A DNA stretch of 64,000 nucleotides. Origin: Candidatus Omnitrophota bacterium (lineage in GTDB: Bacteria; Ratteibacteria; UBA8468; MWAK01). The position numbers were made by a program. Positions 6,001 through 12,000 of this stretch are shown one piece after another (positions within the stretch are counted from its first letter, which is position 1; every line of letters starts with the position of its first letter). Location: positions 84,879 through 148,878 of the forward strand of contig JBDRQI010000005.1 of NCBI GenBank assembly GCA_043826355.1, in the 5' to 3' direction.

Positions 6001-9000
6001 AGCCGCTTAATCAAACCGGTTACTTTCTGTTCGTGCCGGTAAACCCGTTCAAACAGGCCCGGAGATGAAGTGAACTTTACCGTCGGCTGGTTAATCGCCT
6101 TTAAAACAACCCTTTCTCCCCGGCTGACCAAAAAATCATATAGCTTCATCCCATGCGCCCACTCTTCCTTAAACTGGATTTTCAACCAGTGCGCAAACCC
6201 CGCAAGCGAAACTGAATCACTGTAAGCGGCCATGGATAAGTAGAGATACGCCGAATAAAATTCTTTGTTAATCTGGTCGTTCAGAGCATCCCGTAATTTT
6301 TTGTTCACAAACCCTCCCCTTTCTGCATCTGGTTTTGTCTGACTAAATAAGCGACCTTGGCACCCAACTCAAAAACTTTTTCCAGGCAATCCGGGCGCTG
6401 CAACACTTTGCCTTTTTCATCAATACCCCGACACAAAATTTCTTCCCGGTAGTTAGCGTCAATAACCGCAAAAAAGTTCTTGATGATAGAACGGGCATTT
6501 ACAAAAAAATCTTCACGGTTTGAGGCCTCCACTGAGATAAATGCGCCTACTTTTTCTTTTTTAACCGTGCTCTTTTTCAAAATAAACTTAGCCCGCCAGA
6601 GGCACTGGAAACGATCAATCATAATCTTCACCTGGGCGGTAATGCTTCCGAAAAATACCGGTGAAGCCATAATGACGGCGTCCGCTTCCAAAATCTTCCG
6701 GTACACCCCCTGCATATCATCCTCAATTATGCAGGAGCCGTCGTCCTTGAGGTTTGCGCATTCCTGGCAGGGAGCAATCTTCAGGGTGTTCAGTATTACT
6801 TTTTCGGTCTCCGCGCCGATACTCCGGGCGCCTTCCAGCGCCTTGTCAAGCAGAATATCCGTATTTCCGCCAATCCTGGGGCTTCCGTTTATCCCGATTA
6901 TTTTCACTCTATTGTCTTCCTTTTCTCGTAAGATAAATAATTGTTCCGGCGTGCACGGTCGCCAGGATAACGGTCAGCAACGCCGGCAATTTGTGGTGCC
7001 TGAGTTTGAGTTTAAATTTGACCCGGAATAAACCGCTTAAAATGGTTGCCACCAACAGGGTATAAGCCAAGACGCCTAAAGGTACAACGAATAGGTCCAG
7101 GTCCATATTTGGAAAATAAGTATATCACTTTTTCCGGTGCCGGTCAATTTGCCGCTTGATTCTATTTTTTTCTTGCATTACAATAATAAGCGGGTCCGCC
7201 TGCGTCCGCCTCTGGCGGACTATGACGGGCGAAGGAGGTGCGCTATGGAAGAAAAGGAAATTGGGCAGGTTGCGGATTTTTTTACGCACGTCAACGTAAT
7301 CGCGGTAAAGCTTTCCGGAGAACTGTCGGTCGGCGACCGTATCCATATCAAAGGTCATACCACCGACTTCATCCAGGAAGTAGCTTCAATGCAGATTGAG
7401 CACCAGGCCGTGCTTAAAGCGAAGGCCGGCGACGATGTGGGAATTAAAGTCACGGAAAAGGTCCGTCACGGGGACAAGATATTCAAGGTTATCGCCGACT
7501 AAAATCGAGCCACACGATTCGTTTCTCTTTACGGAACCAGGTCAATTGCCGCTTAGCGTAATTCCTGGTCTTCTGTTTGATAATCTTTTTTGCCTCCGGC
7601 AGGGATATTTTTCCGGAAAGATAGGCTGCCGTCTCCCGATAGCCGATCGCTTCAAAAGCCGGCAGAGTGAAATCATAACGTTTGCGAAGCGCTTCTACTT
7701 CCGCCGGAAATCCGGCCGTAAAAATCTCCTCAACCCGCCGGTCAATCCGGCCATAAAGTTCCTCCCGGTTCCGGTGAACGCCGAGCAGACGGAACGGGTA
7801 GACAAACCGCGTGGTCTGACGTTGCAGTGCCGAAATGGGCTTGCCGGTCGCCAGGTAAATCTCCAGCGCCCGGCCCAGGCGGTAAGTATCGTTAGGGTGA
7901 ATCCGGACGGCTGCCTCCGGATCCACCCGTTTTAATCGAAACAGGAGTTCTGCCGGGCCAACACCGAGGAGCCCCTTTCTTGCTTCCAGGACCGCTGCCT
8001 GGTTTGGAACTTCAAAAAATCCATCCAGAACCGCTCTCAGATAAAGTCCACTTCCGCCCACCAGAATCGGAACCCTCTTGCGGCCGATAATCTCCGGAAC
8101 TAACGAACAAACTTTTTCGGCATACCAGTAAGCGTTCGCATTTTCTTCCGGAGAGAGGCAATCAATAAGGTGGTGGGAAACTTTTTCTCTTTCCGAAACG
8201 GTTGGTTTGGCAGTGCCCAGGTCAAGGCCGCGGTAGAACTGAAAAGCGTCGGCGGAGATTATCTCTCCGCCTATCTTTTCGGCCAGAATCAGGCCCGCTT
8301 CGCTCTTGCCGGAGCCGGTAGGCCCGCAGATAAACAGAACGACTGATGCGGGAAATACAAATCCCTCACTTTTTTTCTGCTTCCAGAAGTTCTTTTCCGT
8401 ATTCAATTCCGGCGATAACCGCAGAATCGTCACTGCGCAAAGTTCTTCCTTTACCGCTTTCCGGGCTGAAAAAAACCCTTTCCCGGTAAAGCTTCAAAAA
8501 ACGTTTCTTAAAATCTTCAAAACTGGAACCGTAGATATGATAGGAATCGGTAATGTCAACGTAAGACCCGACCGATACCGGCTGTTTCAACCTTTCCTGA
8601 ATTTGAGCCGCCAAGACCTTTTGAAGGTCGGTCAATCCGTAAATATTCATATAGGCGGCCCGGTAAGCGTCCCGGCTGCGCCAATGGGTATGCATCTGAA
8701 GGTTATACCCTTCCCCTTCCGAAAAAAGCCGGCACCAAACCCGCTGCAGACAGGGCGGGTCGTCTGTTTCCGGATCAACCAGGGGCATCCAGGTAATACC
8801 CTGGGCGCGGCGGCTGTAAGGCTGTTCCGAAAGTTTCCGAACGATATAGTCCAACTGGTTGACGCTTTTAAAAGGAAGCTTCTTCGGGTTGCGGCAGGAA
8901 AGGTCATCGGTAACCAGATAATCGGTCAGACGCTGGTGATAGGTGTAAGTCCACTTCCCCTCTTCCGGGGCAATCCAGTGGTCGTGAACACCGTCAACCA

Positions 9001-12000
9001 CTTCCTGACGATACTTTTCCAAATCTTCAATCCCGCCGCAGAAACCCAGGTGTATCCTGGGTTCGGCAAACGGTTGGCGAATCACCATTACCATTCCTGC
9101 GTCCTTGGCCGGCGGGTCAGTTGGTTTGTCATATTCGGTCTTAATCTGAGTTCCCTTTTCCCACAACAGAACCAGACTCTTCTCCCAAACTTCTGCGATC
9201 CCGTCGCCTTCCACAAAAAGAACCGGCGCTCCTCCCATCTCATCACCCCGTTAATATGCCCTTACCGATTCAACGGTACGGGTACTCATGTTGCAAATGC
9301 AGTTTGCAACAATCCCGTCCTTTATGATACCACAGAACACTTGCCGCAAGAAAGGCGCTAACATCTAAAATATGGTAAAATATTTGGTCGGTCGCACTGT
9401 TTTGCTGTTCACTTTAAATTTATCAGGGCGCAGCGCAGTCTGCCAGAGGCGAAGCTGAAGGGATATGAGAAGGGGCAAAACCTTTCTTAAATATTGGTTT
9501 CGGGGCGTAGCTCAGCTTGGCTAGAGCGCTTGGTTTGGGACCAAGAGGTCGCTGGTTCGAATCCAGTCGCCCCGACTCTTCCTAAAGCTTATATATAAGA
9601 ATTAAATCTTTTCCTGCCTGCATCCCCGCCGGTTCGAACCTTAGAAATTCCTTTTTGAAGGGATAATGTACGGTTCCACTTGGTTGAAGTTGCTTAATGA
9701 CGTCAATACTGCCGACTTCTTCATTTCGTTTTTCAGGTAATCGATTATGAATCCGTCGATTCGTTTCCAAATGTAAGAAACAAATTTAACGGGCTTGAGG
9801 TTTCCCTGCTTGTCCCGATAATAAGGGTCGTAACTTTCAATCTTCTTGTAAACAACCGGAATGATTTCTGCGAGCAAGTCCTCCCCGAACCGCCTAATTA
9901 ACTCGGGGAATACTCTCCGGTGGATTCTAAAGATTAAGAAATCGATATGACGAAGAACAATCTCATCCTTGCTTTTCTTCGAACCTTTTTGGGCTTTTGA
10001 GATTAAACGTCGTTCTTCAGATAGGGTAACTTTTGGATGGTCCTGAATAATGTTGCGGTATAATTCCCACATATTTAGGTAGCAAAATGGGGGATAATTT
10101 TTAAATTATTACGACTAAAAAATTAGGTTAGGCAAGGTAGTTATCCAAAAAGCCTAATGGCTATGACGAGAATCGCAAAATGAAGTGAACCCCTATCCTT
10201 GGACAGACAGGTTAGAATAACATGGCTGGACCGGCGAATTATTTTGTTCTTTGAAAAGTAACCGATTTTCAAACTCCTCCGGGGCAAGTACCCCAGGGAA
10301 GAATGCAACCTTTTTTTATTATACACCGCTTCCAGGAAATAGGGAATCCGTCCCTGAACATCCGCGAGGTTTCGTTATTTCCAGAGGTAAACTTCTTCCG
10401 CTTTCAGAGTTTTAAAGAAACTTTCGGCGGTGGCGTTATCGTAAGGGTTGTCTTTTCGGGACATACTGATTTGAAAACCGCAGGTTTTAAGCCGGTTTGT
10501 ATAATCGCCGGACGCATACTGCACCCCGCGATCGGAATGGTGGATTGTTCCCGGAGCGGGATTTCTCCGGCAGATAGCCATATCCAGGGCGGTAAGCGCC
10601 AACTGGGTATCCAAACTCCTGGAGACGCAGTAACCGACGACCCGGCGGGAGAAGGCGTCCAGGATAACCGCCAGATAAACAAAGCCCGATTCTATCCGAT
10701 ATAGGTAATGTCGGATACCCAAACCTGATTTGTCGCTGTTGGCGGGCGCTCTTTTGTCAGGTTCGGATAGATTGGATAAGCATGGTTGGAGTCGGTGGTG
10801 GTTACCCAGCGTTTCTTAACGGATACCAAGAGGGAACTTTCCCGCATGATGCGGAGGACCCGCTTGTGGTTTACGCAAGATCCGTCTATCTTTAAGTTGA
10901 TGGGTTATATGCCGGTATCCGTATTTGGAAAATTCCAGGGCGACCTCTTCTATCCGGTCCCGAAGATCGTTGTCCGTTTTCATCTTTACCCGGTTTTCCG
11001 GCCGGTAGTAATAGGTGCTGCGGGGAATCTTTAACATTTGGCACCGCCTTTTGACGCAGCCGTGGTATCGGGGGGAAAAGCCGGTAACAAGCCTTCTCTT
11101 TTCCGGGTTTGTTCGATCGTGGCGGAAATGGCGTTTTTTAAAAAGCTCTTGATTTCTGCTGTAATTATACTGGAATCGCCACTCTTCCGACCACAAAGCC
11201 GGAATCCTTGGGAACTTTCAGGTGTTCCTCCTTCATTCCCTCAAGATGAAGTTCTATTGCCTCCTCAACATTCTTCATCGATTCTTCAATCGTTTCACCT
11301 TGTGAGTAGCAACCGGGAAGAGCCGGAACGTCAACCCAATATCCACCTTCTTCCGCTTCGTGAAAAATCACTGTGTATTCCATTTTGCTCCTTATAGAAG
11401 TTCTAAAAACTGAGATTCGGTAAGGCCTGCTTTTCGCAGGGCGTCCTTTAGCAACCCAATTTTCAACTCTTTTGTTACCGGAATTGTTATCAGTTGTCCG
11501 TTTGTCATCTTGATGTTAACGTGGCTTCCTTTAGTGGACTTTTTTACGCCTCCTGCCCGTAGAAAGGCTTTTACGGCCGCCTCTCCTTGGATGCTTCTAA
11601 GTTGCTTGCCGCCCATGTCAATATTTTACTCTGATTATGACTTTTTGTAAAACACGGGGGTGTTTGATCTCTTCCCTTAAAACTATGTTGTACCACCCAC
11701 AAGTCTAATCTTTGGCTTTTTTAAAATTCTTATTAATTCGTCCAGCGTATACACGCCCCCTTGGGTCAGCGGTCAACTGTTTCCACCGGATAATTAATAA
11801 CCCTTCGTATGTTATAATATTTCTGCGGGGTTTGGCTGTATGTCTGTTTTCTTTAAGAACAAACCTTACGGGTCTTCTACCTTTACTTATTAAAGTGCTT
11901 CATTCTGGGTGCAAAGATCATGCAAAAGGTCAAGCTGGATTTCCAGTTCGGTGGGGTTGAATAAGGACTGAAAAGAGGTTCGAATTGCGTCCAGTCGCCC

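Follow-up and report, generated by a model that had tools for sequence, protein, structure and literature searches.

The locus and the protein family

The window, that is, the whole stretch of 64,000 nucleotides that was analysed, lies in a genome of the phylum Ratteibacteria (G000) and contains on its minus strand, at positions 8366..9238, an open reading frame for a 290-residue protein (P0001) that family and fold matches identify as an archaeal-type protein of the thymidylate synthase fold. The best family for this protein is TIGR03283, which it matches with an E value of 1.2e-38 over profile positions 2-199 of 201. Its score of 132.7 bits falls short of the family cut-off of 174.55, however, and the protein thus stands beside the methanogen family, as a sister clade, rather than in it. 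The Pfam model PF00303 was passed (37.1 bits, cut-off 24.3) and the canonical ThyA model TIGR03284 was missed (17.8 bits versus 108.35).

The 3' end of the gene is overlapped by miaA (7489..8433, minus strand; TIGR00174, 277 bits), a conserved neighbour, present in 25 of 30 loci of the phylum. The relatives outside the phylum that were named belong to Planctomycetota and phages, and the carriers named among the matches listed (120 homologs) are MAG-derived taxa only. The longer forms of the protein contain inteins. The two trees were built quickly and have weak or long branches; no order of events is drawn from them.

Active-site residues and predicted fold

As the survey had stated, the catalytic motifs are kept: PPC, RSRD, Asn198 and DSYHIY were all found. 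Cys163 (8750..8752, minus strand, as are all residues below) is at the position of the catalytic nucleophile (ThyA Cys146, T4 Cys148), with Cys in 108 of 110 aligned relatives. Alignment to ThyA places the predicted phosphate-binding pair at Arg143-Arg144 (8807..8812), which are Arg in 106 and 103 of the 110 relatives, respectively. The RSRD motif, Arg187-Ser188-Arg189-Asp190 (8669..8680), aligns with relatives and with ThyA, where we take its counterparts to be R166, S167 and D169. In the DSYHIY motif (8531..8548) the alignment shows His234 and Tyr236 kept and Ser232 replacing the canonical ThyA Asp, and in the YTYH motif (8936..8947) Tyr100 corresponds to ThyA Tyr94 and T4 Tyr96, directly preceded by Thr99. 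The ThyA lid positions Trp80 and Trp83 correspond by HMM alignment, which is poor and uncertain in this region, to His85 (8984..8986; H or K in 78 of 110 relatives) and Trp88. Asn198 (8645..8647), which is Asn in 106 of 110 relatives and Asp in T4 gp42 and MilA, is at the predicted uracil-specifying position, a role given in the accessible text of PMC6400193.

Three residues before the nucleophile lies Asp160 (8759..8761), at the position of T4 Asp145 and ThyA Leu143. According to the same portion of that paper, Asp or Glu at this site is a signature of hydroxymethylases, thymidylate synthases have Leu, and the D145N protein is inactive (PMC6400193). The controls agreed, with Asp in T4 gp42 and four phage proteins of hmU-type phages and Leu in 4/4 canonical ThyA proteins. 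Asp occupies the position in 30/30 phylum loci, 120/120 near homologs and 74 of 80 Planctomycetota loci, the remaining 6/80 having His. Among 120 parseable distant relatives, 78 have D or E and 42 have H, S, Y, N or another residue, so that an acid is not required family-wide; Leu was seen in none of the 120. The survey's own caveat, a possible role in dUMP hydroxymethylation, gains direct support from Asp160, since the protein carries the hydroxymethylase residue. The second half of the signature, given in the accessible text as Ser or Thr two residues before the catalytic Tyr (PMC6400193), is absent in its literal Ser-x-Tyr form: Thr99 directly precedes Tyr100 and corresponds to Val93, a residue that the available part of that paper equates with Ser94. 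Ser-x-Tyr is likewise lacking in the four control proteins of phage dUMP type. In the main text of openly readable papers, we found none that applies the signature to bacterial archaeal-type ThyA proteins.

The structure of the 290-residue protein was predicted with a pLDDT of 97.5. Its best structural match is MilA (Z 21.4, rmsd 3.4, 234 residues aligned), and it superimposes on the FAD-bound dCMP hydroxylase 9iqc with a Z of 20.7 and an rmsd of 2.4 over 205 residues, while canonical ThyA proteins gave a Z of at most 19.1. MilA and AfhB are thus slightly closer to the model than ThyA is, by a Z advantage of only ~2, with ThyA and MilA level by Foldseek and HMM scores. As regards the ThyA C-terminal tail that closes the folate site, which pyrimidine hydroxymethylases lack, the C-terminus of the model is helical and aligned along MilA to residue 290. 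The structure 9iqc shows that a thymidylate synthase fold can hold a flavin.

Distribution relative to FolA

The phylum sample comprised 65 genomes, all incomplete, of which 31 are at least 90% complete; G000 is 85.7% complete. As surveyed, 58 of the 65 carry the archaeal-type gene, and the accompanying figure of 60% identity or more holds except for one partial best hit at 59%. The gene is present in 28/31 of the genomes at least 90% complete. Dihydrofolate reductase (PF00186, E<=0.01) was found in 0/65 genomes and in 0/31 of the most complete ones, where 10/14 controls match, in agreement with the absence first noted; canonical ThyA (TIGR03284, E<=1e-8) was likewise found in 0/65. ThyX, for which G000 gives no match (PF02511), occurs in 13/65 genomes, all of one family (f4), as the survey had it, and 12 of these 13 keep the archaeal-type gene. 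Among the 52 genomes lacking ThyX, 46 have the archaeal-type gene as sole thymidylate synthase. In the ThyX-bearing genus g15 the gene is under purifying selection (dN/dS ~0.06-0.12 in five listed pairs with ThyX in both genomes).

The folate genes reported earlier were also recovered, with FolE, FolK, FolC and FolP over the NCBIfam cut-offs in G000 and FolP in 61/65 genomes (56 over the cut-off). G000 further carries glyA, folD, fhs, metF, dut and tmk. Thymidine kinase and deoxynucleoside kinase (dNK) were found in 0/5 genomes tested, matches to the former being PilT cross-matches, and the methanopterin marker Mch in 0/5, where three controls match.

A sample of 141 Planctomycetota genomes, whose counts include kin and so are not independent, gave a similar picture. 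FolA is present in 56/56 genomes with canonical ThyA and in 0/25 with only archaeal-type genes, 20 of which have no other thymidylate synthase; of the genomes with neither canonical ThyA nor ThyX, 20/25 carry the archaeal-type gene. FolA is also missing from 58/60 ThyX genomes. G077, the sole case of the archaeal-type gene together with FolA, also has a canonical thyA-folA pair. From these ThyA and FolA distributions we conclude that, in the absence of FolA, the archaeal-type family occupies the dTMP slot. FolA was likewise found in 0/5 further genomes and in 0/11 viral records (T4 control matching). Between three whole phage records and G000, as among the phages themselves, the only genes in common are the archaeal-type gene, dUTPase and RecA, and the hypermodification amino acid:DNA transferase PF18724 was found in 0/4 near-complete phages with the gene (YuA control matching).

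The absence of canonical ThyA (0/65) and of salvage kinases (0/5), together with the three-way complementarity in Planctomycetota, supports the survey's view that this gene encodes the core enzyme for dTMP in a phylum without FolA, and the protein very probably serves this role. The alternative that it drew from this, another dihydrofolate reductase or another mechanism, still stands. The accessible parts of PMC9931769 and PMC1971073 describe ThyA as coupled to FolA and take a lack of FolA to accompany ThyX. Here, a ThyA-fold family breaks that coupling in two phyla and in phages, by the kind of profile reasoning that also revealed ThyX. In the main text of openly readable papers, we found none on a bacterial archaeal-type ThyA without FolA.

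Possible chemistry and relation to known systems

Several proteins were considered as the missing reductase. RibD_C was found only as full-length RibD (63/65 phylum genomes), and, to judge from sequence and context, the SDRs of G000 belong to FabG and sugar-dehydrogenase types. No FolM-type motif occurs in 26 SDR frames from 30 loci of five genomes; the pteridine reductase model TIGR02685 matched in 1/30 genomes at E<=1e-30, a protein without the FolM motif, though its E. coli control was silent and the search is weak for FolM. The single PF02441 protein is CoaC-like, and thus the five genomes hold no DmrX/DmrB-type flavoprotein. An N-terminal FolP extension, which we take to resemble the H. 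pylori dihydropteroate reductase domain, is present in only 14/65 genomes and missing from 51/65, including G000, and so was rejected as a general reductase. A nitroreductase lies downstream of the archaeal-type gene in G003 and G014 but is absent from G058 (0), and the flavin reductase PF01613 occurs in 3/5 genomes, with none in G000 and G058. Neighbourhood, fusion and phage gene sharing revealed no partner, and no conserved neighbour appeared in sets of 30, 80 and 20 loci.

Our preferred explanation, built on sequence, fold and gene distributions, is that the protein would be a one-carbon transferase of dTMP synthesis in which folate is not the reductant. Cys163 would add to dUMP and the methylene would be taken from CH2-H4folate, after which H4folate would leave without being oxidised, as it does in hydroxymethylases. 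Another donor would then reduce the exocyclic methylene while it is still bound to the enzyme, the most plausible candidate being a reduced flavin that enters this same pocket; alternatively, hydroxymethyl-dUMP may be released and reduced in a second step. In either case no dihydrofolate would be formed, and FolA would therefore not be needed. We consider the chances even that folate stays unoxidised during methylene transfer and that dTMP is completed by a separate reductant. A flavin in the pocket as that reductant is unlikely when taken singly, and so, to the same degree, is the route via hydroxymethyl-dUMP. Archaeal-type "ThyA" proteins may, tentatively and at somewhat under even chances, form a third mechanistic class, hydroxymethylase-like in a ThyA fold, that leaves folate reduced and either receives hydride from another donor (such as a reduced flavin or, in methanogens, F420) or passes hydroxymethyl-dUMP to another reductase. 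Counting against the preferred explanation, no reductant or partner gene was found, the acid at -3 is not family-wide, Ser-x-Tyr is not literal and the Z margin is small. Formation of dTMP from methylene-pterins is also said to occur in archaeal extracts (Nyce and White 1996), and M. jannaschii MJ0757 is reported to be active (Xu et al. 1999).

The strongest competitor is classical ThyA chemistry, in which a reductase other than FolA, or reduction by reduced flavins at low flux, would recycle the dihydrofolate; this activity would also complete de novo folate synthesis, and the Asp would be ancestral to the clade. This account requires no new chemistry and accords with the retention of the D169 equivalent and of every catalytic residue on the nucleotide side. 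Moreover, since FolP (61/65 genomes) and FolC (G000) are present, some dihydro-pterin reductase must exist; the FolP extension in 14/65 genomes fits this too. De novo folate synthesis calls for such a further reductase anyway, as already known for ThyX bacteria, and its genes are missing in many FolA-less bacteria, according to the available text of PMC1971073. As FolA is missing from 58/60 ThyX genomes, a FolA-less background plus another reductase could explain the pattern. Against it, the known alternative reductases (RibD_C, FolM, PF02441, the FolP extension, nitroreductase, PF01613) are absent or patchy, Leu at -3 occurs in 0/120 parseable distant relatives, and classical chemistry alone leaves unexplained the 0/90 FolA among genomes relying on the archaeal-type gene. 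We regard it as a serious but less than probable account. A genuine dUMP hydroxymethylase that works in nucleic-acid modification or in some other pathway, dTMP coming from a different source, would suit the Asp160 signature, the Asn specificity residue and the gene's retention in 12/13 ThyX genomes, under purifying selection in genus g15, but is improbable given 46/52 ThyX-less phylum genomes with no other thymidylate synthase, no salvage kinase in 5/5 genomes, 20/25 otherwise empty Planctomycetota slots filled and PF18724 in 0/4 near-complete carrier phages. That FolA absence is an artefact of incomplete MAGs (G000 at 85.7%, like all the genomes, is incomplete) or of a divergent FolA missed by a loose first-look search is most improbable, as FolA is lacking in all 31 genomes at least 90% complete (0/31) and the same search detects it in 56/56 canonical-ThyA Planctomycetota, 10/14 controls and T4.

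Read from sequence, the FolA-less archaeal-type enzyme of many anaerobic bacteria may point to a third way of making thymidylate. The proposed third class, if true, would serve methanogens, the whole phylum, ~1 in 6 Planctomycetota and some jumbo phages. Archaeal thymidylate synthase chemistry stayed open partly because of the archaea's modified folates; the bacterial members live with ordinary folate, and the question is thus testable with commercial substrates in one assay. Either outcome is useful, giving a third dTMP route or proof of another dihydrofolate reductase carrying thymidylate-level flux.

Among known systems, the archaeal-type putative thymidylate synthases of TIGR03283 are the full-length best match, and two methanogen-virus proteins share with the 290-residue protein the acidic residue before Cys and S-x-H-x-Y. 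The protein differs in scoring below the cut-off and in a ~55-residue helical C-terminal extension. The TIGR03283 description presumably refers to hosts with a methanopterin C1 pathway, whereas the hosts here are folate-using bacteria (Mch in 0/5 tested). The archaeal enzymes of this type are poorly characterised, according to the accessible parts of PMC9012536 and PMC9931769. Canonical ThyA (TIGR03284) shares the fold, Cys, Arg pair, RSxD, Asn and HxY; the 290-residue protein has Asp in place of Leu143, Ser in place of the Asp before HxY and, by an uncertain alignment, His where ThyA has Trp80, and coupled FolA was found in 0/65 phylum genomes and in 0/25 Planctomycetota genomes with only archaeal-type genes. 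The pyrimidine hydroxymethylases (T4 gp42, MilA and the phage dUMP type) share the Asp three residues before Cys, MilA is the best fold match, and Bacillus phage JL gp159 has an almost identical HxY region. In contrast to these, the present gene is a single-copy core chromosomal gene in the thymidylate synthase slot with no modification genes nearby, and the phage dUMP hydroxymethylases branch apart from it in a quick tree with long branches. AfhB (PDB 9iqc, 9iqu), a flavin-dependent dCMP hydroxylase for whose structure we found no paper in the literature, has the same fold; it is a dCMP monooxygenase by PDB title, and the likeness is one of predicted fold. Finally, ThyX resembles the archaeal-type protein in occurring without FolA and largely excluding other thymidylate synthases, whereas its fold is unrelated.

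Distribution and folate context of the gene

The archaeal-type thymidylate-synthase-fold gene is a 290-residue open reading frame at 8366–9238 on the minus strand. In profile searches its product, P0001, matched TIGR03283 over its full length with 132.7 bits, not reaching the cut-off of 174.55, and scored 17.8 bits against canonical ThyA (TIGR03284) and 37.1 bits against PF00303. The gene overlaps miaA, its neighbor in 25 of 30 phylum loci. Two genes beyond miaA, a flavoprotein of the FMN-reductase family with a Cys motif (6305–6907, minus strand) shows no conserved neighborhood with it in the phylum loci. 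On the other side lies a divergent tRNA-Pro (9501–9576, plus strand), beyond which open reading frame fragments at 10303–11397 appear to resemble a broken IS3-type transposase.

According to the survey, 58 of the 65 phylum genomes carry the gene and none has DHFR. Close homologs bear NCBI labels of Omnitrophica/Omnitrophota and Ratteibacteria, which makes Ratteibacteria the probable phylum. We obtained the same count, with carriers in all five families, and no DHFR match in the 65 genomes, with 10 of 14 positive controls matched; profile searches likewise found canonical ThyA in 0/65. ThyX, reported from 13 genomes of one family, was again present in 13, every one in family f4, and the statement that most of these keep the archaeal-type gene also held, as 12 of the 13 carry both. 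Six genomes, with completeness of 62–92%, have neither gene. The copies L010 and L011, from genomes listed as different species (G007 and G009), are identical (dN and dS of 0), possibly reflecting overlap in binning.

Folate synthesis is present as the survey described: in the source genome, G000, folE, folK, folP and folC exceed the NCBIfam cut-offs, as do fhs, purN, glyA, dut and tmk. Its folD, metF and fchA-like genes score under the cut-offs; they sit in one cluster with fhs on contig C2, where positions 48441–54840 (L340) hold an acetogen-style folate C1 branch (fhs, metF, metV-like, folD, fchA-like). G000 also carries a dCMP-deaminase-like gene. Among five genomes tested, all have SHMT and MTHFR and none has Mch, the latter making ordinary folate the most likely carrier; neither thymidine kinase nor deoxynucleoside kinase was found in any of the five. 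FolA substitutes of known kinds were missing or patchy in the phylum genomes searched. FolP bears an N-terminal extension of ~135 residues in 14 of 65 genomes (genera g6 and g8 and genome G060; e.g. L076:1102–2313), G000 not among them. This extension appears to resemble the dihydropteroate reductase domain of H. pylori, an identity that no library match confirms; stand-alone clusters resembling it (121–129 residues) are present in Atlas. An orthologous nitroreductase lies 1–3 kb 3′ of the archaeal-type gene in G003 and G014 (L144:1483–2025, L148:1183–1713), and none was found in G058.

Thymidylate-synthase-type genes in Planctomycetota and phages

At least 567 stretches in a GTDB scan encode relatives of the protein, and among the best 80 of these, 79 are titled Planctomycetota (Sedimentisphaerales, Phycisphaerae, ‘Pirellulales’) and one uncultured bacterium. 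We searched 141 evenly sampled genomes of Planctomycetota for TIGR03283, DHFR and ThyX and assigned the hits to types. Canonical ThyA was assigned in 56 genomes, by reading nine sequences and, for the others, by a short profile match with folA alongside; all 56 have FolA, none has ThyX, and by coordinates thyA adjoins folA in 55. One genome counted here, G077, has a type-A-like gene besides the thyA–folA pair. Archaeal-type genes only were found in 25 genomes, 15 with type A, the family of P0001, and 10 with type B, a second clade. FolA occurs in 0/25 and ThyX in five, one of them doubtful because it lies behind an assembly gap. ThyX only was found in 55 genomes (FolA in 2 of all 60 ThyX-bearing genomes sampled) and no thymidylate synthase in five; 20 of the 25 genomes lacking both canonical ThyA and ThyX have an archaeal-type gene. 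Five further genomes, reached by locus, yielded no DHFR. These counts are descriptive, as the genomes are kin and incomplete. Given this distribution, the archaeal-type family very probably supplies dTMP.

Type B members (L248, L253, L255, L261) are archaeal-like thymidylate synthases with RSWD and KGxHxY motifs; they too have an Asp before the Cys, and none of the 10 sampled genomes has FolA. In G065, a ThyX match is joined in frame to a phage-like protein across an assembly gap (L406:2–2455), probably a prophage or a scaffold artefact.

In IMG/VR, 17 loci encode the family (L301–L317), including large phages of up to 461 kb. DHFR was found in none of 11 viral records tested, the T4 control being positive. 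In the G216 phage, dUTPase lies directly 3′ of the archaeal-type gene. Mycobacterium phage Papyrus gp76 (L319:3686–4687), annotated as thymidylate synthase and encoded near a nucleoside deoxyribosyltransferase gene, has Asp before the Cys and RSNN replacing RSxD, and may be a base-modifying enzyme.

Active site and proposed chemistry

Cys163, Arg143, Arg144, Arg187, Ser188, Asp190, Asn198, His234 and Tyr236 are 90–98% conserved in 110 aligned relatives, which points to a dUMP-binding enzyme with a covalent Cys mechanism. P0001 departs from canonical ThyA on the folate side, where Asp160 lies three residues N-terminal to Cys163. PMC6400193 gives Asp or Glu at this −3 position as a hydroxymethylase signature, Leu in thymidylate synthases, and T4 dCH as inactive when D145N. 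Our controls agree with that account: Leu in 4/4 canonical ThyA, Glu and Asp in two methanogen-virus proteins, and Asp in T4 gp42 and in YuA gp17, PaMx11 gp51, PhiSH19 and JL gp159, the last four being putative dUMP hydroxymethylases, classed by YuA annotation and PMC8989533 rather than by assay. Asp occupies the position in 30/30 phylum loci, 74/80 Planctomycetota loci and 120/120 near homologs. Among 150 distant representatives, the 120 parseable sequences have Asp or Glu in 78, His, Ser, Tyr, Asn or others in 42 and Leu in none. Several members (P0125, P0130, P0148, P0267 and others) contain inteins, often directly after the catalytic Cys motif, and P0137 carries an RNase H domain at its N terminus.

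The simplest way to join this active site with the exclusion of FolA, to which we give an even chance, is that the enzyme would transfer the methylene to dUMP without oxidising folate and another reductant would complete dTMP. We found no partner gene in the neighborhoods of family loci, in fusions (the longer forms being inteins and one RNase H fusion) or in phage gene sharing, where three phages and G000 share only the archaeal-type gene, dUTPase and RecA. This fits a small diffusible donor and is also predicted by classical ThyA chemistry with an unrecognised dihydrofolate reductase recycling dihydrofolate. The latter, a serious possibility at somewhat under even chances, is parsimonious since folate synthesis in these genomes needs such a reductase activity anyway. 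PMC1971073 notes a need of this kind for ThyX bacteria, and in its Table 1 Bartonella henselae is entered with ThyA present and DHFR absent. A purely modifying role is improbable: purifying selection on the gene alongside ThyX (dN/dS ~0.06–0.12 in the five pairs listed, compared with ~0.04–0.07 in genera g1 and g6) speaks for it, but alternative dTMP sources are missing and PF18724 was found in 0/4 phages tested.

Relation to known enzymes

Earlier work on the archaeal enzymes lends weight to both of the main readings. Krone in 1994 reportedly saw only side reactions with purified Methanobacterium enzyme, which the title calls putative, while thymidylate synthase activity has reportedly been described for archaeal extracts and for MJ0757. 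Databases annotate the family as thymidylate synthase, related to TIGR03283. PMC9012536 calls methanogen ThyA biochemistry little known. PMC9931769 states that work on the archaeal enzymes was not continued, and it regards ThyA and FolA as coupled to one another; PMC5954106 adds nothing further on the clade. Neither FolA exclusion in bacteria nor the hydroxymethylase signature in this clade was found reported in the literature searched, which covers older subscription titles thinly.

The AlphaFold model of P0001 (pLDDT 97.5) matches two structures better than canonical ThyA (Z of at most 19.1): MilA, with a Z of 21.4, and 9iqc, a dCMP hydroxylase with bound FAD, with a Z of 20.7. By Foldseek and HMM scores, MilA and ThyA are almost level.
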